Source of the DNA: Tubulanus polymorphus
Lineage: Eukaryota > Animalia > Nemertea
DNA: 64,000 nucleotides
NCBI RefSeq assembly: GCF_964204645.1
Contig: NC_134028.1
Coordinates: forward strand, 24,734,345-24,798,344
Reading direction: 5' to 3'
Part shown: positions 9,537 through 64,000 of the stretch, piece by piece
Position numbering within the stretch: position 1 is the stretch's first letter
Layout of the letters: every line of letters begins with the position of its first letter
Notes under the pieces: model-generated
Told to the model about the DNA's origin: nothing
Databases searched by the model: none
Seen by the model: only the letters and a program-made list of their open reading frames with translations
Position numbers and translations under genes: made by a program

Positions 9537-11444
9537 TTTCGTCGTCGTGTGCGTTTGGTTTAACATTCCTCAAACAAAACCATCGACTCAAAACATCACC
9601 TAAAGTAGTTAATTTTCGATAGTTATATGATTGAATTCATCAATGGTACGTAGGTCACCTTATCGCTGCTTTGCATAATCTTAGTCTGATAGAGCTAGCA
9701 ATTTATTGTTCAGTAAAGAAGTCATCAGATCTTTTTGCGGGCGTTATAACGCTGTGACACTAAATGGAAAAAACGAAAAAAATGTTTTGGATGTTTTGAA
9801 AGTCAAGTTATATTTGATTGATTTTCTCACTGGAATAATTTTTATTCGGTACCTTCGCGCATAATATTCATTATTTAAGCTAGAATTTTCCTGTCAAAGC
9901 ACTTTATACAATATTTGTAAATACAATGCACTATATATAGATAAATAAATATATATATACGAATATATATCCGTTTGGTAGAGTAAAGTTTGCCGTCCAA
10001 TGATTTGTGATAAATGTACAGGTCCCTTATATTGTAACGTAGCCTATAAAAAAACAAAATATATAAGTTAAGTATATTTTTCTAATGTCAAAGCTCTTGT
10101 GATAACTTGTACATAAAATATAATCATTTAAGTTTATATTCTTCTCATTTATCAATATACCAAAATGATGTATAATTCATTATCTATTCTTATCTATGAA
10201 ATGAAAGTGTTTTTTGACGACGATTGGTGATACGTTGTATTTTGTTTTAATTGATGTTGAGAGTGCCAATTACTGTTTTAAATAAACTGTTGACCAGTTC
10301 TAAAATCTGCGAGTTGTTTTCGATTTGTTTTTCTTGTGAAGATGATTCGTTTGATTATCCTCGTTGGCGACGACGACATCAGTCCCAGTCCACAATGCCT
10401 CTATTCTAAAATAGATGGCGTCGGACATGTAAAATGAAATGAATGATAATACAAGCACCTGAGTCTGGTATTTAGGCGATCATTTATAAGGAAGACACGA
10501 TTTTCAAAGAAGTATGAAATAAAAGATATTTATTCTATTTTCACAATTAAAGATTTTCTTACGTCATATCCCATTTCATTTCTAGTGTGTTCGTGTGTTT
10601 CCCTATCGTGTGTGTTTACGAGAAACATGGTTTTTGGGAAACAATGTTTCCGCGATCAAGAATGTTTGAATCTGCGCGATCGTAAAGGTCTTCCTTTTTC
10701 GAATTCGCGTCCACTATTTTCAAGAGTTGGCGAATTCAAAGCCCTTCGACATATAAAACACAGCTGTGATCTGAAGGATGTAACTGCACTGATAAATCTC
10801 GTATTATCTAGTCATCAACTAGTTCAAAACACTTTGAAAAGGAGATAGTGCGGGTGAAATTTACCGGTTGAGTTCGGTTTCGCATAGACTTCGATCAGCT
10901 GATTTCGCACGAGAATCGCGAACATTTTAACCTTTAAAATTAAATTCCATAGGTCAATTATTTTTAATACATACAAACAATTCAACAAAAATATCAGTGA
11001 CAATTTTCAGTGACAACTGGTTTTTGTAGGTGACCCCGTTGTCCGTAGCTTAAGATATCAAATAATAAATTGCACTACATTGGCCGTTGCTTGAATAATA
11101 CAACTTAGATAAGTACAAGCTTTATAGGGCCCGATTTCACTAAAAGTTAAACTCAAATTTCTGTTTGTTCTATTCATGTTTTCGATGAGGAAAACAATTC
11201 AAGCTTAACCGTTTCAAGCTTTTTTTGCGAAACCCGAGGACGATATTTCAAGGACCTTAATTCCAAAGAGACTAGTCTATGAATTTAACCATTTTTACCA
11301 TTGGACAGTCCAGTCCAGCCTTATATACTATATATGGTAAAATATGTTTTGAACACATTTATAACAATTATACAAATACACGTGTTATATATCTGTGGCA
11401 AAGAAACAAATGATTAGTATGATATAGTTAATTTACTGCTGTTA

Positions 11445-11550
11445 ATCAAAATCGTCTCAAACTCTACTCTCTATCAAAATCGTCTCAAACTTTACTCTCT
11501 ATCAAAATCGTCTCAAACTCTACTCTCTATCAAAATCGTTTCAAACTCTC
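11445..11550. repeat. 28-bp minisatellite, ~4 copies
   Basis: atcaaaatcgtctcaaactctactctct in tandem. Confidence 0.85.
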
Positions 11551-14500
11551 TAGTGTGTCTATCCATATTGGCTCAAACTCATCCTTCCTTAGGAAACAAT
11601 AGGCGAGTGCCTCTTTAGGACCTGTCGCCATTTGTTTTACTGTTGCCACTGATTTGTTTACATGTGTTTATTCCTACCCGTGACTGGACTTAACAACGAC
11701 GGGTCGGTTTTAATTACACACAATGGAATCCGTTGACAATACAGATAATGAATTCGTCCAAGCGTACGAGAACATGTACCGGACGATATTGTCACTGTTG
11801 GCCCAAACCTTTCTTTATCTGTTCATTTACCCGGAAAACCAAATAAAACATGTATCAATGTTATTAAGCCGTTGATTGGCTCGTTGTTTCACGTTACTGT
11901 TTAAATCCAGTTGAGGCATAGCAAAAAACAAAAAAGTCGCATGATTTGCTCCCAGAGCCGGAGCGAACTATACTACCACCCTACTTATACCTCTAGTGAT
12001 GGAATCGAATTTATCGGTCCTGTTTTATAATGAAAACTTATCCTAGTGCTTTTTGGAAGAAAACACAGGGTTAACTTGAATAAGTCCATAACTTGACCAG
12101 AAATGTGTCACTAAGTAGATTCTGTAACTTTCACTACTGCAAGGGCATGGTTGAGCTGCCCTTTTATTCCAAAAATCGAAGGAAGGTCAAATAAAAATGG
12201 GTTTGACCGCGGTCACGTAACCGAGCGCCTGGTCCTCGTAGTAGTGAGGTGGAGGTACGTAGACGGCTTATCCCGCGGGGCTTATCATCAAAACCACAGG
12301 AATACAAACTGATAAGAAATGAATTCTGCCTCAAACCGGGTCTTTATCAACAATAACGGTGCCCTACAATACTGATTGTACTGAAGCCAAATCTTAATTC
12401 ACGCGAAATGCGGAATATTTCCCAATTAAGTTATTTTTACTTCTCAGCGCGGATGGCATTCTGAAATATAACCTGTGGTTCTCAGGATACAGATTCCTCT
12501 CTGGGAATCGTAACCGCGCGGTTCAAGTTAGCAAATTATCTATTTTTGTACGAAAAGAACCACACCAAGATATGAAAATAAACGTCTTTGCTTCCAAAAT
12601 CTGAAATTTTGATCTGACCTCGCGGAATATATTACCAAAACTTGCAGTTAATCACAACAAACAGAAACGAAGTCGTCCAGGAATAAACACATGCGTGTTG
12701 TATTGAAATACTTGTCTTTCATTAAAATTCTATAGGAATTATTACGTATTATCAGTTTAGAATTTTTCTGAAGTTCGAATCCTTCTGGCGGTAAGTAGTA
12801 ACTTGAATATCCCTCCAGTTAAAGTCCGCACATTGCAGAAATCCCTTTTCTTACTAATCTCCATTTAACCCTATCTGCGCGTGAAGTCGAATTTGGCTCG
12901 AGCTCGCAGAAAATAACGGTCGCATCCTTGTTTACTTGTTTTGAAACTATAGATGTATCTGCACATAGTCAGATATAGTTTTACAATTAAGTTAGATCGG
13001 AAACACATTTAACATATATACATGTTTAAACTACCGAGATCACTGTTCCACAAACTTAAAACTTTGTAGATCAAGAACGATCGGTGCAATGATAAGACTT
13101 CCTTTAAAATCGATCGTTTAATGGAAAATTTTTGTCCACGATGAATTCACGACTGTCACACTTCAACCACAGAATATCAAAATAGACGTTTGAGACAATA
13201 ATCATTCTTTAAACTTTATAGCTGGTACTTTGATAAGAAGTACCAAGACTCTAACCAGACGTTCAATGAGAAGACTTTGGCCTCATTGGTACGTAGGTTA
13301 CATTGTTTGAAATTTCGGCTATCAATTAAACTATGGGCCAAAGAGCAGACTATAATAAATCATCGAATTCACCTTGGAACTTATACAGCGAATTATTCTA
13401 AGAAATAGAAACATTAGTCTGTATGGAAAGATTCGGAACTGATGATAATGTGTCTATTAAGCCAAACCGCGGATCAGTGCGGATTTCGGTTCATGGGTTT
13501 TAGGAGGAGCTGCGCCACGAACATGCGCGAATCCAGGCTGTATTGAGCCTGATTTGGCAATGTGATAAGTCCAAGATTATTCTATTCGGAAAACCTGTAG
13601 TTGTGGCGAGTGAAGAAGATGTGACCCTTTCCCCTGAAAATGCCCTTTTGGATTTCTACCCAAAATAAACAATTCTACAAAAATATCTCTGCCAAGCATC
13701 TTATCTTAATCTAATCCCTGGGTGACCACACAGTTGTAAGGCCGTAGAGCTGGGTATTTCTGTTAATTGTTGAATGGCCGTAAAAATGTACCCTGTGTGT
13801 TGAATAAAAATGGTCCTCCGGAATACGGTGGAAAATATGGTCCTGGATCACCCGCCCTCGTACAAAAAGTGTCTAAAATCAATTAACAGCTCATACGTAA
13901 ACCCGTTTAGTTTAGATATGTTACAAGAAAACAAAAAGCCCTCGCCGAAATAACACTCTGCTCAGACTGGTTTGCAATTAGCCTCTCATTAACGTAGATA
14001 ACAGTAATTAATCAATCTCACTGTAAGTAATTGTTTGGTCACGTAGTAAATTCGATCCCCTTTTAGAGTACCAGATGTTGTTATGGCGCGCGTGAAAACA
14101 TTGCTTTTTTCCGTGAAAATCCTTAACTAGAATGATGTAATTTAAACTGATGCAATCATCAACTTTCTTTTTTTCTGATGAAACTTTCTAATTTCCCTAG
14201 TACATGTATCTAAAAAATCAATTTCGGATGTTTTGAAGAAATTGGGGCCAATGATCGAAAGGCTAGACTGACAGTTTGTGCAATTTAAACTGTCTTGCGA
14301 TGAATTGAATATTTTGAAGTAATTTTCCAACTGATCAACGTCATTGTAATTGTCTCCAATCGAACGGTCAAAATGGACCGAATAGATGGTCACAGGTCAA
14401 AGGTTTAGCTGGGACGTGTTCGAGTTTGTTTACGTCGCATTCCACGCAGCAAACTTTCCATCGTAGCCAACGTATAGGGGTGGAAGCATTCGCGACACCT

Positions 14501-38047: not shown

Positions 38048-41000
38048 CCGTCGCTGTCATAGAAAAATTCAATCAATCGTTTTACGGTAAAAATGAAAAA
38101 TTGTCGCTTGATCCGTAAAACGTCTCATGAAATACGAGTTGATTCGATTGACTCGGTGCTTGTGTAATACAACATATATTCATTCAATCTGTACTGATAA
38201 CAGCTTTACTTCGCTCAGCCCTTACTTCGCTCAGCCTTACTTCGCTCAGCCTTACTTCGCTCAGCCCTTACTTCGCTCAGCCCTTACTTCGCTCAGCCCT
38301 TACTTCGCTCAGCCCTTACTTCGCTCAGCCCTTACTTCGCTCAGCCCTTACTTCGCTCAGCCCTTACTTCGCTCAGCCCTTACTTCGCTCAGCACTTACT
38401 TCGCTCAGCCCTTACTTCGCTCAGCCTTCACTTCCCTTAGCCCTTACTTCGCTCAGCCCTTACTTCGCTCAGCCTTTACTTCGCTCAGCCCTTACTTCGC
38501 TCAGCCCTTACTTCGCTCAGCCCTTACTTCGCTCAGCCTTCACTTCCCTTAGCCCTCACTTCGCTCAGCCCTTACTTCGCTCAGCCCTTACTTCGCTCAG
38601 CCCTTACTTCGCTCAGCCCTTACTTCGCTCAGCCCTTACTTCGCTCAGCCCTTACTTCGCTCAGCCCTTACTTCGCTCAGCACTTACTTCGCTCAGCCCT
38701 TACTTCGCTCAGCCTTCACTTCCCTTAGCCCTTACTTCGCTCAGCCCTTACTTCGCTCAGCCTTTACTTCGCTCAGCCCTTACTTCGCTCAGCCCTTACT
38801 TCGCTCAGCCCTTACTTCGCTCAGCCCTTACTTCGCTCAGCCCTTACTTCGCTCAGCCCTTACTTCGCTCAGCCCTTACTTCACTCAGCCCTTACTTCAT
38901 GGTTCTTAATCTCACTCCTTTACGCCTCTGTTCGCCGGTAAAAATTTTTCGAAACAAGATATGATGATGGCGTAGAACTTGGCGGTGGTAAAATGCATTA
39001 GTCGTCCCGGGAATTCAACCGGCGTTCCACCGAAACAATATTCAAGGAGTTCAGTTACTGAATGTCAATCGGTGTTCATGCATCGGCGCAAGATAAGGTG
39101 GAAGAGCTGAACAGTGATTCATCAGTTCACTCGAAGAATTGAAGAGAAGATCAGAAAGGAACTGAGCAGTAACATCAAACACGAGATGGATAATATACAG
39201 GATAACGACTATACCTCGATAATCTCTGCTGTCAAACTTTAAGTCTTATAAGTCTTTTTGTATTGAGCCATGAAACAATATTTCTGTAACAGCGAGGATT
39301 TGATGGGGCCTCGATTTGACGCCCGTTGCCTGATTCGGACCGGACTATAACCCGATATCTCTAATTGAAGTAGTCTTCATGAAAAATGAGAGCGACCTTG
39401 AAAATAGCAGTTTAATCGAAAATGAGTCAGAAATCATTTCGATTTTGAAAGTATTTTGAAATATTTGGGAGAAGTTGAGCTATCAAAAAGAGTAGAAACT
39501 GCTCCCAAATAGTCGTCATTGTTGTTAGATTGGCTATAGAACTGATCTGAAGTTGTTAGATTGGCTTCACTAAGATGGTCATGGACTGGTCTGAAGTCTA
39601 AGCTCAGACTATAGAACACCCCCCCCCCCCGAGTACTACAGCTCTTAGTAAACAATTTGACTATAACTGATTTTAATTCTTGAGTCAAACTTATTCTATT
39701 TCACATCAGCTCCTTAGCACAAGAGCTGCTTCAGCTCCTGTGCACCTGGATTCAGGAGCTTGAAGTGTAATAGAATATATGTCTTCGGTAAGAATGAAGT
39801 TGAGAGGGATTCTTCAGAGGTGGTCCCTTTCATATAGAAAATGCTACCACCTTTCAAGATGATCGCCATTAACGAGATCGATTAGATTACGAGCAGGAAA
39901 TGTACTTGGAAAATGAGCCGGTAAAGTATTACACGCGTGAATGACCACAGCGAAATGAGCATCATATACACACTATACCACTCTACACTAGAGAGAGAGA
40001 GAGAGGTCGCTAATTGCCTGAATAAGTTTCAATCACTGATTCTGAGAGAGGTTGTATGTATGCTATCAGAGCCCGGGGTGAAAACTTCCGACGACAATAA
40101 TAATTACATCATGTCTAACATTAGTACTAGAAGCAGGAAAACCTTCCCTGCCCAGTTGCACTGTTCCTAGGGATCAGGGAATCCAAAATTGCCTGCTATT
40201 TCTTTGATCTTAAGACCCGAAAATTCCCAGATTAAATCGTAAGATATCCTCAGTGGGAGCTGTTTTTATCAAGAGGTTCAGAACTTTGGAACTGGATCCT
40301 GATTTATTTTTACGGGGAAGAATAATTCCTGTAGATCACACAGATTTCACTGTAAGTGACAGTTTCTACTGCTACCAGTCTACAGTAGATCACACAGATT
40401 TCCCTGTGACAGTTTCTACTGCTACCAGTCTACAGTAGATCACACAGATTTCCCTGTGACAGTTTCTACTGCTACCAGTCTACAGTAGATCATACAGATT
40501 CCCCTGTGACAGTTTCTGCTGCTACCAGTCTACAGTAGATCACACAGATTTCCCTGTGACAGTTTCTACTGCTACCAGTCTACAGTAGATCACACAGATT
40601 CCCCAGTGACAGTTTCTACTGCTACCAGTCTACAGTAGATCACACAGATTTCCCTGTGACAGTTTCTACTGCTACCAGTCTACAGTAGATCATACAGATT
40701 CCCCTGTGACAGTTTCTACTGCTACCAGTCTACAGTAGATCACACAGATTCCCCTGTGACAGTTTCTAATGCTACAAGTCTACAGTAGATCATACAGATT
40801 CCCCAGTGACAGTTTCTACTGCTACAAGTCTACAGTAGATCACACAGATTCCCCTGTGACAGTTTCTACTGCTACAAGTCTACAGTAGATCACACAGATT
40901 CCCCTGTGGCAGTTTCTACTGCTACCAGTCTACAATAGATCACACAGATTCCCCTGTGACAGTTTCTACTGCTACCAGTCTACAGTAGATCACACAGATT

Positions 41001-44000
41001 CCCCTGTGACAGTTTCTAATGCTACAAGTCTACAGTAGATCATACAGATTCCCCAGTGACAGTTTCTACTGCTACAAGTCTACAGTAGATCACACAGATT
41101 CCCCTGTGACAGTTTCTACTGCTACAAGTCTACAGTAGATCACACAGATTCCCCTGTGGCAGTTTCTACTGCTACCAGTCTACAATAGATCACACAGATT
41201 CCCCTGTGACAGTTTCTACTGCTACCAGTCTACAGTAGATCATACAGATTTCGCAGTAGAACGTGTAATGAAAAGCTTTCTATTATCCCTCGTAATGTGA
41301 AGCCAATAATTTACAGATGACGTTGATTTATAATCGTACTCCGACCCGACATCTCTAGTAGAAGATGAAATGCAATGTCCTCACAAACAGAAAATTGGCT
41401 TAGCACATTCATGTTAATTATCGATCATATATCCTTCAAACTCAGAATGTCATTATTAGCGCCATCTTCATGGTCACATGGCCTGGCATAACTGAAGTTA
41501 CCTGGAGTATTCTAGATCAACATAATATTTATCCGAGGGGTCTCTAGTGAGAGACTAACTCTTTCCAGTAAACTCACTGGCTCTTCGAAGACAGGAAGGT
41601 ACGTACTGCCCTCAGGTGCTATTTCGGAATTTTAGTTAAGAAGTAAAGAAGTAAATTGATGACTCAATGAACGGATCACACAAAAAACCGAAATATTGTC
41701 CCACTCTGAAAGGGTTTATCTTAGATTTGCGTGTTTTTAACTGTACTATTTCGTTAAGGGTTTACGAAGTTGTAGCTCTTCTTCACAATACAGAATTAGA
41801 TGATAGCAGATTGAAGAGTGAATCCAGTGTAACGGGTTATCACAACAGTATCAGTAACGCAGTACTATACCAACGCCTCAGGACATATTGAAAGGACAGT
41901 CTGCACAGGGTCACAGTGTATCATCAATTGATTCGCACTTTAAGACTCTTTGATAATTATCAGCGCAGGATGGCGGATGATGGACGGATAGTTCAAACAT
42001 GGACATTTCTGCCTAGTTTATGTGTACATCCGTGGTTCACCAAGATGATGATTAGAAAGCAATTCAATCTCGTGGTATCCAGTTCCAGGTTTGTCCTTGA
42101 ATTTGACCGTAGGGTCAATTGAGTGAAATGTAACTGACAAACGGATCCTAGGTCAGAAATCATTAAAACTGGTGTCAAATCTGAACTCAAATTTCGATGG
42201 CACTCGATCCAAATCGCCCTGATCACAGTCAAAACTGAATTCATAGTTCTGATTACACATAGTCAAGGCAACAGATCTGAATCCGCTGATTGCAGCAGTC
42301 AAATCCAAAGATTCCATGGAAAGTGGGTTCAGATGCCCTGATTACGGTGAAGTCATTCACTGAAATATCGCGGAATAAAAACTGCCGGCTAGTCATTCAG
42401 ATAATTCGGATTGATTGAGCGTCTCTTGACTGTTTGAAACTGGATGATTTTTCTATCCCCACATGACCAGCCATCTGTGCAGCAGATATCTGCTGATGTA
42501 TGACTAGTAGTAATTAATAATCGGGAGAATGTGACACTAGACTGAGACACGAGAGGCTGTTACACACACAATCACATGTAAAATGATTAATCATTGACAG
42601 GAGTATCTGAGTTTAAGAGAACTAGTGTTAATTACAAACAGGACAGTAAAACCCTGATACAGGACAGTTCAACCCAGATACAGGATAGTTCTACCCAGGT
42701 ACAGGAGACATGACAACTCAACCCTGATACAGGAGACAGGATAACTCAACCCTGATACAGGACACAGGACAACTCAACCCTGATACAGGAGACAGGATAA
42801 CTCAACCCTGATACAGGAGACAGGACAACTCAACCCTGATACAGGAGACAAGACAACTCGACCCTGATACAGGAGACAGGACAACTCAACCCTGATACAG
42901 GAGACAGGACAACTCGACCCTGATACAGGAGACAGGACAACTCAACCCTGATACAGGAGACAGGACAACTCGACCCTGATACAGGAGACAGGACAACTCG
43001 ACCCTGATACAGGAGACAGGACAACTCGACCCTGATACAGGAGACAGGACAACTCAACCCTGATACAGGAGACAGGACAACTCGACCCTGATACAGGAGA
43101 CAGGACAACTCGACCCTGATACAGGGGACAGGACAACTCAACCCTGATACAGGAGACAGGACAACTCGACCCTGATACAGGAGACAGGACAACTCAACCC
43201 TGATACAGGAGACAGGACAACTCGACCCTGATACAGGAGACAGGACAACTCGACCCTGATACAGGAGACAGGACAACTCGACCCTGATACAGGAGACAGG
43301 ACAACTCAACCCTGATACAGGAGACAGGACAACTCAACCCTGATACAGGAGACAGTACAGCTCGACCCTGATACAGGAGACAGGACAACTCAACCCTGAT
43401 ACAGGAGACAGGATAACTCAACCCTGATACAGGAGACAGGACAGCTCAACCCTGATACAGGAGACAGGATAACTCAACCCTGATACAGGAGACAGGACAG
43501 CTCAACCCTGATACAGGAGACATGACAACTAAACCCTGATACAGGAGACAGGACAGCTCAACCCTGATACAGGAGACATGACAACTAAACCCTGATACAG
43601 GAGACAGGACAACTCAACCCTGATACAGGAGACAGGACAACTCAACCCTGATACAGGGGACAGGACAACTCAACCCTGATACAGGAGACAGGACAACTCA
43701 ACCCTGATACAGGGGACAGGACAACTCGACCCTGATACAGGAGACAGGACAACTCGACCCTGATACAGGAGACAGGACAACTCAACCTACTCATCAATGA
43801 TTACAAGGGCTACAAGAAACTGTTCATTAGAGTCACGATCATACAAGCTTTTTTAACCAGGTCAAATTTATTCCGTGCCAGATTATACCAGGCCAATTGT
43901 TCCAACAAATGTGTGCGTGCGGCAGAGTGCGAGTTAGACCAAAAATGTCAGACCAGGCTCTTGGCAAATTTCGTGGCATATCTTGTGTGAATGCTACTTG

Positions 44001-52816: not shown

Positions 52817-55800
52817 TCACGGGTAAAGTAACATAGCTACATCGTTCATACCGCTATCCCTCAGGGCCTTCTCCAGATTGATCGCATACGCGTGGTTTCC
52901 TTCACGATTTCGCCATGATTTCAACATGAAAAATGCCTGCAACAAAATCAGCATCGATTCATTAAAAAGACAATTTTTACAAGCCAGGAATACATCATCT
53001 TTCAGAGACCCATACAGAAGACTATTTTTCAACTGTGAGATGTTGGCTGAAAATATTTTCTGTCCATGGTATAATAATCCATATATAATAATAATAATCT
53101 ATTTCCACATGTCGTAAAGAGATACACAAAAAAATATACAAAATATGATGTTTTTATGTAATGTGGAGGAAATTAGATGAAGCCAACAAAGGCTTATAAA
53201 TATTTTCCGTCGAATCAGATGTTGCTTTCGCGTCTCTCACAAATTTTTCATGGACCAAAAAGATCTGACTTGAAAGCAGAGTCTATTGTACGTAAACGCG
53301 TAATTCTATGAATAATCAAATGAGCCCAAACAGTCTAAGTATAAAACGCGTTTAGTTTGAGCGTGGACACTAAACCAAATGGCAATATATGTTTAAGGGG
53401 ATGTTTAATCCATTGGAAATGGTTCTGGAATGTTGCCTTTGTCAACATATAATAAGGATCCAGTTCTACAATGAAAAGTTCAACTCTAAAATCGATTTAT
53501 GCAAAACGGTAATGACTATCAATAATCAATTTTTATGAGAATGGTTCAAAGATTAGAAATTTTCTTGTACTCAGCATTTACAAATACTTACAGTGTCTTT
53601 ATGATCAGGAAACCGAAGTTCAAATTCGTTGATATCTGTTGATGTAAATCCCAGTTTATTTGCTACTAGATACCAGTCTCTTCTATAGATCTTTCCAGCT
53701 ATTTCGTTCAGTTTGTAATCGGTCGGGATTTGTCTTGAAAACTCGGGTTCTGGACTTTGGCGTTTCTGCATTTAGAAATCTTAGAATTTACACTCATTTA
53801 GTATAGATTTGGTACATTATTTCTGCTAGCTCTAGTTCGACAATTACAGCCAAGAGCTGTATTATCCCCCCTCCCCCCATTAAAACACAAAATCCCGCAG
53901 TAGGTGAACAGAGAAATTTCTTCGTTGTTCTTACATGCTGTGATTTTTTAAATCCTGTAATATCAGGTCCAGATGAAAGTTCTTTAATGTCGGCGGGAAT
54001 GATCTCGAAATTGAATATTTCCGCTTTAGCGTCTGGTGGTATATTCCGCGCCCACTTCACAAAATCAACTTCTTCAATTACACCTACAACAACAGGAATA
54101 GAAATAAAATACAAATCTGAAGAATGAAGGGGAACACATTTTCGTTAATGACTCCGTATGTACATAATACTTCGCGTGTAGTTGGTTTTCCAATAGCTAT
54201 TGCAAAATATATAAAAGTTCTACCTTTATTGTTGGGATCCATTTCTCGGAAGAAAACTTCTACTAAAACAGTCAGCGACTCCTTCAACAAAATATTAATA
54301 CATATATTTGAGATAATTAGTGTACAAAATAAAATGACGGGATTTAGTTTCAAATCCCTAATGAGATTCAGTTTAAAATTTTCATACTAGGTGAGTGTAA
54401 AGCTTTTCCTTGAAGACGGGAGATAAAATGGGGGATAAAATGGGGATAAAATGGAACTGTGCAGATGTGGAAGGTAAATTGTTCTAGAGGGCACGACACC
54501 TGCACAGACGCCTCAAGATAATTATTTTGAAAGAGAATATTTTCAGCACAAACAGAAATACCAGTACCTGTGAGTCGTCAGGGTAGATCTTTGCTAATAC
54601 CTTCTGCAACAGGTCTTTCGATAAGGATTTCCCGTTATTCAACAAATGAAATAGAGCTGTCAGAAGAAGATAAATATCAACAATTTTATGCCAATAAAGA
54701 TAAACTCGTATTTTAGAAGGGAAATAATCAATAATCGTTTCAGTTTCAAAGGCTAATTACATTTTTATTGAAAATGAGATGTCATAATAGCAACTACTAA
54801 ACATAAATCGTCTTTGTGAAACAGGCCCATATATATTTTATCACCCTTTTTGAAAAATGTTCTTGCCTTTGATTTTGGTTTCCGTGTTTGTGGTTTCTAA
54901 CCACTGCATCGCCGTGCAGAATGATAGGAACGTCACATTTCCATCTTCACCTTTCATGTTTTTCGTGATCTAGAGGAAAAGTGTACAAGGCATACAATAT
55001 ACAACCCGCTTAACTCATCGAGTGCCACAGTTTTTACCATCAAGGCTTTTTGTAATCAACTTTTGAAAAATAATGCATATTATCAAGTTCTGATGTTGTT
55101 GAATATCAATGGAGTTAGTTGCATGAATATAGTCACTACCTTTGGATAAAACATCGATTTACTAAGATGGCCGCGTAGAATTGTTGACACTTACATTTCG
55201 AATGAAGACGTTATTATTAAGTTTCGGTTGTTGTAACATCGATGGTTCAAGTATTCCATACTCGTTACAACCGAGCTGTTGAAATCGAGTCCATAACCGT
55301 TCCACCTCGAGGATGCTTACTAAATATATAAAATAGAAAGTTGAGAGGAGCATTTTATTGCCTGCTGAAAATGAGCATGAACTCAATTGTTTGATTTAGG
55401 TAAGCAAGCTCTAGTCAGTAACCTGTTTGTGGTTTAGTTTCATGATTGGTTCACAAGCCTATCCGATCATATACAGACTTACCACCAACAATTAGGTAAC
55501 AAACTAAGCAAGCCTTGACTAGTCTGGGAGCAATATGGCAATATAGAAAGTTACGCAGAAAATTTTTTTGCAAGGAGCATAAACTGTTTCAATCGATTAA
55601 GCTCGGCAAGCTTAGATTATTCTTAAAGCAATATGACAATATATAGCAACTTTGTCACCCAGGTGAGGGAAGTTTGAATGCCTTTTCCTATACCAGACCT
55701 GTACATTTGTAATACTAATGTGGGTAAGGTTGCAGCCTATATGATGAGTACTAAAATCTACTGCCTGGTTGTTCGGGGACAGTAGGTGCGAAGAAAGTGA

Positions 55801-59200: not shown

Positions 59201-60639
59201 TTAGACAATGTAGCTTACTTAGGAAATCTTGCGAAATGACCAATTAATGAATTTAATGACGTTTTTAAATTAGAATACGCTGTTATTTGCTTTTTCAGCC
59301 GTTGATTTTGAAACCTACGTCTTGTTGGAAACTCGACTGGGACGATCTGGATAGCAATCAACAGCATTTCCAAGCAATTTCTCAACTACTTCTAGAGAAA
59401 GTATGTGAACTAGGTGAAACCGAATGTCAGTTAGTCGGAACTATAGTCCGCAAATAGTGAACCACGTTACTGAGCACGGTCGCTGTGGTTCAGACCTAGT
59501 TTCAAGATGACTGATACCGCGTATGACCGAACTGATAGTGCCTTCGCATAAAAGTTCGGGCCACTAGTTACGAAATCTGAAGTTTACCAAGAACTCATTC
59601 AGTCTATGGTTTCCCTAAAAAGCGATGAGTTGACTTCAATTGTCTTTTTCAGAACAAGTTTTTGTTGTGTAAACTCGAAGATATGAACTCCTCTGCGCCT
59701 CATGGATATTTCATTATTTTGCCGTCAAATACATCGACTTTATTATTAAAATCAGTTGCCTCCTCGGAGTTGATGCTGCCCTGTACTAAACCGGTATTGG
59801 AAACTGTCTCAGCTGATGCGATGCAGAATATTTCAGATTCGCTGCATAATGCAAGTATTTAAAACGGATTTTATGTTCAACTAATGAATTTCTGATACGC
59901 TCCAACAAGCTCACGATCGGACAAGTAGGTTGGTACAAGCCTATCCGATTATAAAAGCTTACCACCAACGATTATTTAGACAGCTTCTAGGGAAATAAGT
60001 GAATAGGTTCTTACTGCCTTTAGATCAACATTTTGCATTATTCATAACAGGTTGAAACATTGACTGATTTTAACCCTTTGCTGTTGGATTCTGGATTGTA
60101 CGACATTCTCGCAAACTCCGCCAAAGAAAATATAGGACCGAAGCGGAAGCTAAACATTCAGGTGCGTGTTACTTGACTGAATGCTATGTACAGGGTCCGA
60201 TCTAAGCACTTGCCCGATTGCCCGGAACAAGTATATTCTCATCAGGGCAAGTAAGTTATCATTGACACTTGTCCCCCGGGCTAGTGCAATTTCATGTCAC
60301 AAAGCTTTTCTCCTAGTCGATACAACGGATGATTGTGCCACCAATCGGGACTGCCTGTATAGGGCAAGTAGCTTTTGGAGGGGGCAAGCGAAATTTCAGA
60401 TATGCTTGCCCCCCCCCCCCCCGGGCAAGTGGCTTTCATTCCTTAGATCGGACCCTGTATGTACTTTACTTAATGAATTCTCTTTTAGACTGACATTGAT
60501 TTTTTATTCATAGGAAAATAAGTATAATAGTGGACTAGGAGACTGTGTGCATGAGCAGCAGCAGAATCAGATCCGTAAAGGTTACTCACACGCTCCAGTG
60601 TTCAGGTCGGCGAAATCCTTATTTCCGACACGTCTGTAG
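56293..60639 (+). CDS. M1AP: Meiosis 1 associated (arrest) protein-like
   Basis: Exons 56293-56338, 56753-56910, 57357-57554, 57853-57966, 58326-58566, 58743-58822, 58927-59070, 59299-59400, 59653-59850 (GC donor), 60051-60161, 60514-60639. Motifs GPSRVPFFGL, KCDIHERLVNP, FGLPLILKPTSCWKLDWDDLDSNQQHF, LLLKSVASSELMLP, FNPL. AATAAA at 60831. Confidence 0.88.
60191..60457. mobile_element. Non-autonomous DNA transposon (CAGGG TIR, 6-bp TSD)
   Basis: TATGTA|CAGGGTCCGATCTAAG ... CTTAGATCGGACCCTG|TATGTA with internal gggcaagt repeats. Confidence 0.75.
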
Positions 60640-61049
60640 CCGAAAAATCGCGATGCGTCAAAGTTTCTCTATATGAATAATCTAACATCATAAAATATCT
60701 GTATATATGTTTTAGAAATGATAAACATACATGTATAATGGACTATATTATATGGTTCATATTATGTCGTTTTCATTCTTATCTTTAATCTATACAAGAA
60801 TTTATTGTTAGGTCGTTCGTCATTTCATTGAATAAATTATCATCAAGTTACGTTTATTGTTTTATCAGCGTGCGTCGTGCGTTCATTAATTGCTCGTTTC
60901 ACCACGCCTGCTGGTTTGTTGAAATGACGTCCATGGTGCAGCGATGTACACAGGTATGTACAAAGTTTAATTCGAGAAATGGACGATTGATAAACAACAA
61001 AAATTCATTTAGGGAAAAATCAACACGTAGCTAGGTTTCCATAAGCAAG

Positions 61050-61134
61050 TAATTGTCTAATTTAATTGAAGAACCACAATTACGAAGTGAAAAAAAGCTT
61101 CATCCCCAGAAGAAAAGAATGACGTTTCGACTCG
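61050..61134 (-). mobile_element. Truncated Penelope-like repeat fragment abutting the Rhs relic
   Basis: Minus strand GAGTC-GAAACGTC (hammerhead 3' half) ... cttcgtaattgtgg, the same arrangement as the 26470 copy. Confidence 0.4.
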
Positions 61135-61224
61135 ATTCCAAGAATTTCCGAAATAGCCCCCGACACCTCAGGTTAAAGCGCCACCAAGGGCACCTTGTTA
61201 GCTCCCCCCCCCCGCTAAGTACCC
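61135..61224 (-). pseudogene. Frameshifted relic of the Rhs Gly-rich C-terminal (pre-toxin) segment
   Basis: A shifted frame reads GYLAGGGS*QGALGGALT*GVGGYFGNSWN (stops at 61200-61198 and 61170-61168). Confidence 0.55.
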
Positions 61225-64000
61225 TCGACAAATCCCGATGGATCGTTGTATCGTAGAGGGTTATTTTTAGCGCACGAGTAACGGTTAAAACTCTGCGTAT
61301 CGTACGGATCCTGTACGTGTGGATCAGGACTCAAGAATCGTCCGACCTCCGGGTCGTAGACACGACCGTTCATATGGATTAATTGCAGCTCATCGATTCG
61401 TTCCTGTCCAGTAAAATCTCGTTTAATACCAGAGACCGAAGCGGCTGAATAGGAAACAGAAGAACGCTCGAAAGCCCAATCTTTGAAGGGTTGAGGTTTT
61501 CCAAACACGTTATAACGTTTTCTCAATAGTACCTGCCCGCTCTCACCAGTAATCGTATCAACTGATCCAACATGGTCGAGATGGACGTATCTCATATATG
61601 TATTGGAATTTATAGCCGTCTCGATTCCCACTAGTTTATTATTAGCATAGATAAAATACTTGTGTTCATCGCCCTGATCGTTTTTAGTAACTTCGTACAC
61701 CTTTCCGATGTAGTATGCCTTCCTTTGATTGTTGTTATGGTGGTCAAATGTTTTTCTAACATATCGACTTCGATCTGGATCGTATTTGAAATTGACAACC
61801 TGGCTGCCCGTTTCAAACATTTCTAGCAAGTTGAAAGAGGTCCACCCAACCAACTGCATATTCTTGCGTATTACGTTCCCATTGTCGTCGTAAGCGTTAG
61901 AATTATGCCCAGTTTGGACGAGAGCCCTGGGCTTCTGCGAATGGTACACGTGATGTGGGCCGCCCATTCCGCTGAATCTACGAATATTACCGATTGCATC
62001 GTACTGCCAATCTTCGGTGAATGCGCGCTGATCAGCAGGATTCTGACTTCTCATAGTAGCTCTTACCACTCTATCGAGATTGTCGTATTCGAATGTTTCG
62101 ATGGTTTTTCTCTCGCTGATGAGATCCTTCCTGCTCAGCATATTACCGTCTGTATTATAACCATACTGCCAGTGACGTAAGGTCCGCTTCGATTTGTCCG
62201 TACTACGTATATGGGTCACGTGATTCATCAAGTCGTATTGATACTCGGTTAGTATCCCATTCCCAGACGTTTCCTTCGTTACCTGGCCAAACTGATCGTA
62301 GTTCAAACCAGTCCAGTAGTTATCAGTAAGAGGACCACTACAAGCCGACTTGCGCACGGCAATCAAATATCCAGTTGGCGAATAGCAGTAATGCACAGTC
62401 TTTCCACCAGGGTATATTTGTTGTGTAATTTGGCTCTGCCTGTTATATGATGTTTTCACTTCCAATACCTTAGTTCCAATTGTTGTATTGACGATAAATT
62501 CTCTGCCAACTGAATCATAATTATACTCCCTCGTGAAACCACCAGGCGCGGTTACCTTTGCCACCTTGCCCTTACCACGGGGCTTTGTATCATAAAACCA
62601 AAGCGTATCGCCTTCTGGTTCATTCCTCTTGACGATCCTTCCGAGTTCATCAAAGTATTCTAGTTTCTCTTGCCCTTTAGCGTCGGTTTGTCGAACCAGT
62701 TCGCCAAACGCATTGTATCCATATTTCCATGTTCCCATATCAGGGTCAGTCATTTGTATTTTATTTCCAACCTTGTCATAAATGAATTCGTCAGCATTAC
62801 CAGCAGGATCTGTTATCTTTTTTAAATTGCCCACAGCATCGTACTGATAATTAAGTTCACCGCCATTAGCATCAATAACCTTAATCATTCTATCCATTAC
62901 ATCTCGCTGAGTAGTTGTTTTATGTCCTTTTCCATCGAACGATTCCGTTATCAATCCTTTAAACACTTTTCTCGTCACGTGTCTCAAATTGCTGTCCATC
63001 GGCCGATCGACCTTCACTTCGCGACCAATGACGTCGTAAGTGTACTGCACCCAGGATCGTCTACAAGTTGATTCACAAGGTAGTGACTGTTTTGCTACAA
63101 GTCCCAGTCCACTGTATGTGATATCTTCATAAATATCTTTACCGTTAAAATCTTTCGTGTGAATTCGAATCACTCGATCGAGTTTGTCGTAGATTCTGCT
63201 TTCAGATGGTTTTCCAGGTTCAGATGTGGAAACCTTGTAACCAGCATGCGGTATGGTATTATCCCACTGATAGGACCAATTGATTTGCGACCCGTCTGGC
63301 CTCCTCTCTGAAAGCTTCCTTCCGAAATCGTCGTAGGTCCAACTCGTTTTTAAACCATTAGCACCGACCATAGCGATTGTGTTGCCTAATCTATCGTACT
63401 GATACGTTTCCGTGTGACCGAGGCTATTTGTAGCGCTCACTTTACGGACACCATTTGAATCATAGGCTGTCGTGACTGAACGAATCTGTTTCGCTTGATT
63501 ACCGTGAGTGAATTTCGGAGTACGAGTTTGCTTTATCATGTTACCGAACTTATCGTAAATATTGTTACTTACTAATGCCAGATTATCATCAGGTTCAATG
63601 ACCATTGATGCGAGGGTTCTCTTAGTGACGTCATACGACCGAATCGTTTGCCGAACGGATATGTTTTCGTGTTGATCTGTATGTGTAACCTTCAGACAAA
63701 GAACCTGCCCGATAAACCAATTCTGCTTATTATTCAAAAACGATCTATTAGTTTCCTGTTTGAACGTGACTCCACCTCCACTAATCGTTCTCGTGATGTT
63801 TCGTGCATTTCCGTATTCATCGATGTTCTTAAACTCTTCCGTTTCCACTTTTATCGGGGCTCCATCGATTTCATTGACCTTCTGTATGATCTTATCCAGA
63901 ACGATCTGAATGTTGTTGGCTCCGGCCTGTGGATTTTGACGATGGCTGAATGTTTGACTTTTTTCCGACACGACTTTACCATTTACGTTAATAGTGCTCT
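61215..64000 (-). CDS. Intronless Rhs/YD-repeat protein (bacterial polymorphic-toxin shell), 5'-partial, no C-terminal toxin domain
   Basis: The frame is open to the window edge (..STINVNGKVVSEK..). Many YD repeats (YDRLG, YDDFGR, YDVIGR, YDAVGN, DPDMGTWKYGYNAFGEL). Rhs-associated core FTGQE..LIHMNGRVYDPEVGRFLSPDP..FNRYSCAKNNPLRYNDPSG, then FVEGT*. Confidence 0.9.
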   Translation of the reverse strand, partial: STINVNGKVVSEKSQTFSHRQNPQAGANNIQIVLDKIIQKVNEIDGAPIKVETEEFKNIDEYGNARNITRTISGGGVTFKQETNRSFLNNKQNWFIGQVLCLKVTHTDQHENISVRQTIRSYDVTKRTLASMVIEPDDNLALVSNNIYDKFGNMIKQTRTPKFTHGNQAKQIRSVTTAYDSNGVRKVSATNSLGHTETYQYDRLGNTIAMVGANGLKTSWTYDDFGRKLSERRPDGSQINWSYQWDNTIPHAGYKVSTSEPGKPSESRIYDKLDRVIRIHTKDFNGKDIYEDITYSGLGLVAKQSLPCESTCRRSWVQYTYDVIGREVKVDRPMDSNLRHVTRKVFKGLITESFDGKGHKTTTQRDVMDRMIKVIDANGGELNYQYDAVGNLKKITDPAGNADEFIYDKVGNKIQMTDPDMGTWKYGYNAFGELVRQTDAKGQEKLEYFDELGRIVKRNEPEGDTLWFYDTKPRGKGKVAKVTAPGGFTREYNYDSVGREFIVNTTIGTKVLEVKTSYNRQSQITQQIYPGGKTVHYCYSPTGYLIAVRKSACSGPLTDNYWTGLNYDQFGQVTKETSGNGILTEYQYDLMNHVTHIRSTDKSKRTLRHWQYGYNTDGNMLSRKDLISERKTIETFEYDNLDRVVRATMRSQNPADQRAFTEDWQYDAIGNIRRFSGMGGPHHVYHSQKPRALVQTGHNSNAYDDNGNVIRKNMQLVGWTSFNLLEMFETGSQVVNFKYDPDRSRYVRKTFDHHNNNQRKAYYIGKVYEVTKNDQGDEHKYFIYANNKLVGIETAINSNTYMRYVHLDHVGSVDTITGESGQVLLRKRYNVFGKPQPFKDWAFERSSVSYSAASVSGIKRDFTGQERIDELQLIHMNGRVYDPEVGRFLSPDPHVQDPYDTQSFNRYSCAKNNPLRYNDPSGFVEGT

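Follow-up and report, generated by a model that had tools for sequence, protein, structure and literature searches.

A payload-less duplicate of a gene for a predicted lectin-tipped Rhs capsule, very probably of bacterial origin, in the nemertean Tubulanus polymorphus

Bacterial Rhs toxins of the TcdB/TcaC export class combine a signal peptide, an SpvB domain, an integrin-like propeller and RHS repeats (PMC3482391). In animals, the described Rhs shells are those of the teneurins and of the arthropod SGS proteins, both of which have lost or replaced the bacterial toxin. The autoprotease residues Arg-Asp-Asp occur in Tc toxins and SGS proteins, and the last Asp is lost in teneurins (PMC9935623). 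Here we describe an Rhs/YD gene at the end of a 64,000-nucleotide stretch of a T. polymorphus chromosome (NC_134028.1, positions 24,734,345 to 24,798,344 of the forward strand; this whole stretch is referred to as the window). This gene lacks its payload and is likely a dead duplicate of an animal gene, whose intact paralog, termed P0002, is a member of a lectin-tipped family of Rhs proteins. Our best reading is that this family goes back to a bacterial Rhs capsule that was captured by animals independently of SGS, since marine bacterial sequences are far closer to it than SGS is.

The Rhs gene family and its bacterial relatives

A preliminary description of the window, made from its letters alone, had reported a long intronless frame with YD repeats and a complete Rhs core, and our analysis confirms these features. 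The minus-strand open reading frame (ORF; 63998..61215) has 927 codons, is still open at the window edge and shows no intron in its visible stretch; the chance of an open frame that long at the local base composition is about 1e-27. It matches the Pfam family RHS_repeat (E 1.7e-48) and, in the HMMER check proposed in the preliminary description, scores above the cut-offs of TIGR01643 (4e-30) and TIGR03696 (6.9e-16). Its best match is P0002, a protein of 1,987 amino acids (aa), with 882 of 923 residues identical (96%) in an ungapped alignment. The matches below P0002 show 42–43% identity over 94–99% of the query and include proteins of Exaiptasia diaphana, Actinostola, Owenia fusiformis and Lingula anatina; bacterial matches reach 37% identity at most. 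With relatives in sea anemones, an annelid and a brachiopod, the capture is not private to this lineage.

In an IQ-TREE phylogeny of 736 shell columns, rooted at the midpoint only, 12 animal-type rows form one clade with 100/100 support among 24 other rows. The clade lies within a group that holds sequences of Arcobacter, Sulfurimonas, Thiodiazotropha and Desulfobacterales, and the tree singles out no single bacterial donor. A FastTree phylogeny with 68 rows agrees. This nesting bears out the earlier proposal that the gene was horizontally acquired and descends from bacterial Rhs proteins of the SpvB/TcaC type, and we regard it as very likely that it is an animal gene of bacterial origin. A point against this is that a species name is missing from eight of the clade's 12 rows, P0001 and P0002 included, and several of them come from metagenome assemblies, so some could be bacterial. 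A scan of 37 of the 64 GTDB parts, from which 79 loci were retained, gave no prokaryotic genome with more than 45% identity, and neither the metagenomes scanned (5 of 64 parts, 78 loci) nor the viral sequences (11 loci) yielded a member of the animal-type clade, the best segment reaching 46%. A literature search of incomplete coverage, supplements excluded, turned up no account of lectin-tipped Rhs proteins in marine invertebrates. The Actinostola model P0008 continues into a PhyH-like domain (PF05721), probably through an annotation fusion of two genes, and P0137, a protist transcriptome fragment (eukprot, Stygiella incarcerata), falls into a 90% cluster with an Arcobacter Rhs protein and is probably bacterial contamination.

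The gene tree conflicts with the species tree, the Owenia protein being 65% identical to that of Actinostola and 43% to that of Lingula, and an approximately unbiased (AU) test, with groups named post hoc after the tree, rejects an Owenia plus Lingula clade (p 7.5e-71). Both results favour a history of several transfers, be it between animals or out of an unsampled symbiont clade, which is compatible with the capture proposed above; the full-length member P0458, a single ORF on a 24-kb ENA contig, points in the same direction. An ancient duplication with differential loss yields the same tree, however, and the GTDB result above speaks against several transfers. Moreover, two Exaiptasia gene models and all six full-length members of the P0004 cluster diverge at the same SpvB position, with alternative starts in an Exaiptasia model and the six cluster members, which hints at a spliceosomal intron shared by the Exaiptasia/P0004 subclade and would also count against several transfers. 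The tree is thus compatible with repeated transfer as well as with old paralogs and their loss, and we give several transfers somewhat less than an even chance.

Predicted architecture and mode of action of the intact protein

The N-terminal half of the window copy lies outside the window, and the SpvB domain, the propeller and the TcdB-mid domain are known from P0002. This protein consists of a signal-like N-terminus, SpvB (37–201), a propeller of FG-GAP repeats, TcdB-mid (661–787), RHS repeats, the core and a tail of 261 aa; PF03534, PF13517 and PF12256 are the Pfam domains above cut-off. Hydrophobic N-termini precede the SpvB start in P0002, P0007, P0009 and P0130, as judged by sequence inspection without a signal-peptide predictor. 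The four top PDB sequence matches of the P0002 propeller are the lectins PVL, AAL2 and PAL (E 7e-105 to 1e-81). A model of the N-terminal 798 aa (predicted local distance difference test, pLDDT, 89.6) superposes on PVL with a root-mean-square deviation (rmsd) of 1.3 Å over 353 columns and on TcB with a TMq of 0.65. The pocket residues, mapped by motif spacing from the description of AAL2 in PMC4483166, include a Trp and a His that are present in seven of seven blades; the propeller is predicted, with fairly good confidence, to bind sugar. Lectins of this class, PropLec7B, bind N-acetylglucosamine (GlcNAc) and N-acetylneuraminic acid (Neu5Ac) (PMC11186620). The available part of the same source lists PropLec7B in Cnidaria, Rotifera, Annelida and Brachiopoda and does not mention Rhs there; these animal records likely reflect the lectin-tipped Rhs proteins. 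Separately, three large ORFs with PVL-like propellers and no Rhs core motif lie near an Rhs gene in Lacibacterium aquatile (L076:1-5410 and 9766-12808).

The tail opens with a cationic helix that carries a net charge of +5 to +7 over 16 residues, continues with about 120 hydrophobic residues of which 39–46% are Gly or Ala, and ends in a C-terminal domain with invariant His, Asp, Asn and Gly. It is modelled as all-helical (pLDDT 90.5, predicted template modelling score 0.82). Across the animal-type clade the tail is 52–67% identical to that of P0002, and the hypervariable C-terminus of polymorphic toxins is not seen; among the named animals and close relatives it is even more conserved than the shell (58–67% against 43–47%, each compared to P0002). 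A tail profile finds 589 cluster representatives at E<=1e-10. Pfam gives no match to the tail above cut-off and NCBIfam none at all, and in the Atlas its only matches are below 0.9, all to unnamed bacterial clusters. A tail-only profile matches no PDB sequence, SGS included (best E 0.07), Foldseek returns no match to the modelled fold at E<=0.001, and the best hit in VIA, to small membrane helical proteins (Z 6.7, rmsd 4.4, 83 aligned), is not a clear match. These blank searches do not show a new fold. An alignment of SGS1 that runs into its transmembrane (TM) helices was considered as tail homology; it may be compositional and was not counted. On the composition of the tail we lean slightly towards a membrane-active payload.

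The C-terminal domain of the tail also occurs in three of 168 fetched loci, all three bacterial, from Cognaticolwellia (L067), Rugosibacter (L047) and Comamonas (L038). In all three, an ORF of 100–113 aa with a signal and a Cys lies less than 50 nt downstream, and two of the three ORFs match the lipobox pattern. Four such lipoprotein-like ORFs align with each other, sharing a Cys pair and a C-terminal motif at 22–33% identity, and match no Pfam or NCBIfam family. A profile built from them, which the four seeds match by construction, detects a fifth copy in L047, directly downstream of an orphan tail fragment; elsewhere among 15,212 ORFs it gives only two weak matches (L125, L007), and none in the window, which thus has no immunity-like gene. 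The Rugosibacter locus (L047:2106-5505) forms an array of a lipoprotein, the orphan tail fragment, a lipoprotein fragment, an Rhs C-terminal cassette and a further lipoprotein, an unannotated pair resembling toxin and immunity genes. Tandem toxin fragments with lipoproteins are typical of envelope-acting interbacterial toxins. As the lipoprotein-like gene follows the bacterial tail in the way immunity genes follow envelope toxins, the ancestral target would be the bacterial envelope. By this analogy a microbial target of the animal toxin is plausible, if tentative, and falls just short of an even chance.

We propose, with about as much doubt as confidence, that the intact protein is a secreted, lectin-guided Rhs capsule that releases a helical, membrane-damaging payload, most likely against microbes. 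The protein would be secreted, and its seven-bladed lectin would dock the capsule on N-acetylated sugars. Judged from Tc and SGS biology, the shell would enclose the tail, and the core Arg-Asp-Asp, which is kept in all 11 animal-type relatives, would cut it off after DPxG. Once freed, the tail might insert into the target membrane by its cationic helix and the following Gly/Ala-rich hydrophobic helices, and the bacterial gene neighbourhoods suggest that this membrane is most likely microbial. Several observations weigh against this proposal. The invariant His, Asp, Asn and Glu in the C-terminal half of the tail could mean an enzyme instead of a pore. The immunity function of the bacterial neighbours is deduced from three loci, with lipoproteins that are 22–33% identical and one pair that gives no BLAST alignment. 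The pocket Asn/Asp, essential for GlcNAc binding in the AAL2-type pocket (PMC4483166), is kept in only two of the seven P0002 blades (Gln in three, Ala or Ser in two), and several propeller blades of the Exaiptasia copy are degenerate; the sugar specificity may therefore differ. A bolder version would be that invertebrates of at least three phyla secrete a self-contained nanocapsule derived from bacterial warfare, guided by its lectin to peptidoglycan- or chitin-type sugars and armed with an undescribed membrane-toxin family, and that its gene moved more than once into or between animals; in this full form it is rather unlikely.

Alternatively, the intact protein could be a venom or anti-predator toxin against animal cells, its lectin binding chitin or glycans that end in GlcNAc or sialic acid and its tail permeabilising animal membranes. 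The sugars bound by this lectin class (PMC11186620) would suit such a role, two of the named carriers are sea anemones, and in mosquitoes an Rhs shell that encloses TM helices, SGS1, is a salivary protein (PMC9935623). The lipoprotein-like neighbour of the bacterial tail carriers, however, would not be needed by a host-directed toxin. Moreover, neither Owenia nor Lingula is known as a venomous predator, and we consider this explanation unlikely.

A little less likely still is that the protein has been domesticated like a teneurin: secreted but no longer toxic, it would serve as a lectin or in adhesion or signalling, and its tail would be harmless. Teneurins set a precedent for this (PMC3482391, PMC6425310), and a tail that is not hypervariable within the animal clade would fit. 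Unlike in teneurins, though, the last Asp of the catalytic triplet is retained throughout the relatives (11 of 11), the C-terminal domain of the animal tail is still 53% identical to a bacterial one with an immunity-like neighbour, and the distribution of the family is patchy and includes broken copies.

State and genomic placement of the window copy

The preliminary description spoke of a toxin-shell gene. This copy is not an intact toxin, as its payload is destroyed: the frame stops five residues past DPSG, where intact animal-type relatives continue for about 256–275 aa, and what is left of the tail is a decayed remnant (Table 1), recognizable by tblastn at 61197-61135 (90% identity over 21 aa). 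No other credible tail match was found by tblastn anywhere in the window, and none past about 61120. A second version is seen in the 6,024-nt X5 contig, which is colinear with 61230-64000 (86 differences, no gaps), is longer than the window at the broken end (234 nt against 35) and runs 989 nt past the remnant; an intact version therefore exists in the species. That the window copy does not function as a toxin is in our view very likely.

That the shell has decayed too is suggested, though not shown, by several comparisons with P0002. At the 41 shell differences the homologues favour P0002 16 times and the window copy nine times, and 16 sites are uninformative. At sites where at least six of ten homologues agree, nine differences favour the intact copy and three the window copy, and the IQ-TREE branch leading to the window copy is 0.036 long, that of the intact copy 0. 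Two points count against a dead copy: 2.77 kb of the shell are still open, and the excess of damaging shell changes is not significant (16 vs 9 of 41, p 0.23). The same points would fit a working payload-free variant under selection, be it an empty shell, a decoy or a pure lectin, with a shell open for 922 codons beside a decayed tail; the broken end is also found in an individual from another study. The homologue majority and the branch lengths speak against such a variant, and the clustering of the differences at aa 696–801 fits gene conversion from the intact copy, which could keep a dead frame open. We therefore regard it as improbable and the duplicate as likely dead. Further members of the animal-type clade, P0204, P0211, P0221 and P0460, are fragments or frame-broken on contigs of 13–330 kb, which suggests that decayed copies are common in the family.

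The gene is almost certainly a real host gene, embedded in an animal chromosome as the preliminary description had it. The X1 contig (828 nt) spans 60432-61259 without a difference, and its depth of 32.7 falls within the 28–35 of flanking unique contigs. X1 is possibly the source sample of the window, and the raw reads of X7, from another study, are the only independent set. They cross the broken end, cover 30 of 30 bins and differ from the window by ordinary small variants at two sites, 61198 (in 15 of 15 reads) and 61204 (in 11 of 14), both within a stretch peculiar to that end. With the junction bin and eight bins dominated by repeats left out, X7 depth averages 15.3 in nine Rhs bins and 9.6 in 12 bins of the flanks (a ratio of 1.6, p 0.009). 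At 61644-61761, moreover, roughly half the depth of X1, X2 and X7 shows other letters. The excess depth and the mixed letters indicate two copies, and together with P0002 and the X5 contig they substantiate the earlier suggestion of a multi-copy family, with at least two copies in the species. An assembly chimera with symbiont DNA, for which one might cite the intron-free visible part, a GC content at third codon positions (GC3) of 0.43 vs 0.56 in pooled host exons and a codon-usage r of 0.25, is all but ruled out by the junction bridged at flank depth and the X7 reads, by the size of the contigs that hold the paralog (27.4 Mb) and the Owenia homologue (37 Mb), by best named matches that are animal, and by single host exons with a GC3 as low as 0.44 (range 0.44–0.67), so that a value at the low end of host exons is weak evidence in either direction.

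Table 1. Features of the Rhs locus, in window positions.
Feature	Position	Strand	Remarks
Region joining the last exon of the neighbour and the broken Rhs end	60432..61259		one bridging contig
Last coding exon of convergent host gene	60514..60639	+	from sequence; putative M1AP
Decayed payload-tail remnant	61120..61229	-	stop 61217-61215; ~200 nt missing vs intact copy; further stops and frame shifts
C-terminal half of Rhs/YD shell	61233..63998	-	P0002 residues 805–1726; intron-free here; extends past window
Rhs-associated core, aspartyl autoprotease motif GRxYDP..GRF.S.DP...DPSG	61233..61427	-	TIGR03696, aa 858–922
Conserved cysteine pair, aa 538 and 553 (HYCYS/KSAC), candidate disulphide	62340..62387	-	from homologue comparison

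The autoprotease core motif is present in the window copy as well as in the 11 animal-type relatives. Two cysteine pairs had been put forward as possible disulphides. Both cysteines of HYCYS/KSAC are found in P0002 and in eight of ten homologues, and this pair may form a disulphide; those of LPCESTC are conserved in none of the ten at either position, are private to this lineage, and were dropped as a candidate.

The surroundings are eukaryotic. As described before, the flanking genes are split into exons, among them genes for an S-adenosylmethionine synthetase, EF-hand proteins and PH-domain proteins, and high-copy repeats are present. A distance of 576 nt separates the stop of the Rhs ORF from the TAG codon at 60637-60639 in the convergent neighbour, in agreement with the roughly 575 bp given earlier. 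The preliminary description names this neighbour M1AP, which Pfam and the Atlas did not confirm, as the single exons tested gave no match. A high-copy element resembling a miniature inverted-repeat transposable element, with perfect 18-nt terminal inverted repeats, occupies 60189-60459 in the last intron of the neighbour, and further short high-copy elements lie near 55412-55446 and 59929-59974. Tandem repeat arrays at 38112-38964 and 42830-43333 give rise to long spurious open frames.

Comparison with known systems

As a decayed duplicate, the window copy matters mainly for the intact gene to which it leads. The family of that gene appears to keep the whole apparatus of export signal, targeting lectin, shell, protease and bacterial-type payload. 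Should microbe killing prove true, it would be a new effector class for invertebrate immunity and symbiont control, and with Exaiptasia a laboratory model carries the family, so this is testable there. Its study would also reveal what guides a stand-alone SpvB-type Rhs capsule to its target and which role a common unannotated bacterial payload plays.

The bacterial TcdB/TcaC-type Rhs toxins have the whole domain order of P0002. P0002 has SpvB, the propeller, TcdB-mid, RHS/YD repeats, the Arg-Asp-Asp core and 261 aa of payload after DPxG; the window copy has no payload at that position. PVL-like propellers on Rhs shells exist in bacteria and phage-borne sequences (P0189, P0034, P0036, P0031, L162), and bacterial Rhs proteins with the same tail exist as well (L067, P0140, P0143); among the sequences fetched, propeller and tail occur together only in the animal-type clade. 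The protein of L162 (L162:2465-8462, from a viral-collection contig) has 1,998 aa with SpvB, PVL propeller and Rhs parts, ends in a different tail and lies outside that clade. Unlike the bacterial toxins, the animal-type protein is encoded by an animal, its tail is fixed rather than swapped, and the window lacks an immunity-like gene.

The Tc B-C components (TcdB2-TccC3, YenB/YenC2) share SpvB, the propeller, the shell fold (TMq 0.6–0.65) and the autoprotease motif. P0002 differs from them in being one chain with a signal-like peptide, with a PVL-type lectin in place of the TcA dock and a cargo that is not a known Tc enzyme.

Mosquito SGS1 and SGS4 (PMC9935623; PDB 8fjp, 9on3) are likewise animal, secreted, Tc-like shells of bacterial origin with an autoprotease core. 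Their cargo of about 230–300 aa of buried hydrophobic helices and their outer sugar-binding domains resemble the predicted plan of the intact protein, and SGS1 is the best PDB match of a core-plus-tail profile (E 1.7e-18). As described in that source, SGS proteins differ in their size of about 3,360 aa, in being without a classical signal peptide, and in their two propellers, Ig-like carbohydrate-binding module/lectin domains and Tox-SGS. Membership in SGS was rejected for P0002, which has 1,987 aa and one propeller and matches SGS4 at only E 1.8e-4.

Teneurins also have an animal YD shell of bacterial origin. P0002, unlike them, has SpvB and keeps the last catalytic Asp, and its Pfam scan shows no TM, EGF, FN-plug, NHL or GHH domains. 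The scan, the core residues and the tree agree with the preliminary description that the gene is not a teneurin, and this candidate was discarded. The lectin-tipped family is, moreover, present in cnidarians, where a review reports no teneurin (PMC6425310).

By composition only, the tail resembles the glycine-zipper bacteriocins CdzC/D of Caulobacter, whose Gly-rich hydrophobic helices kill bacteria and which need an immunity protein (PMC5380434). The fungal lectins PVL, AAL2 and PAL (PropLec7B) share with the P0002 propeller seven repeats of about 55 aa, the close superposition given above (rmsd 1.3 Å) and the pocket Trp, His and Gly; in contrast to them, the propeller is inserted in an Rhs capsule and has the essential Asn/Asp in only two of seven blades. 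The tick Dae amidases, alike in logic only, are a precedent for animals that keep a bacterial antibacterial effector. From its sequence, the lectin-tipped family would thus work like the SGS and Tc B-C shells while being a member of neither, and it is distinct from the teneurins.

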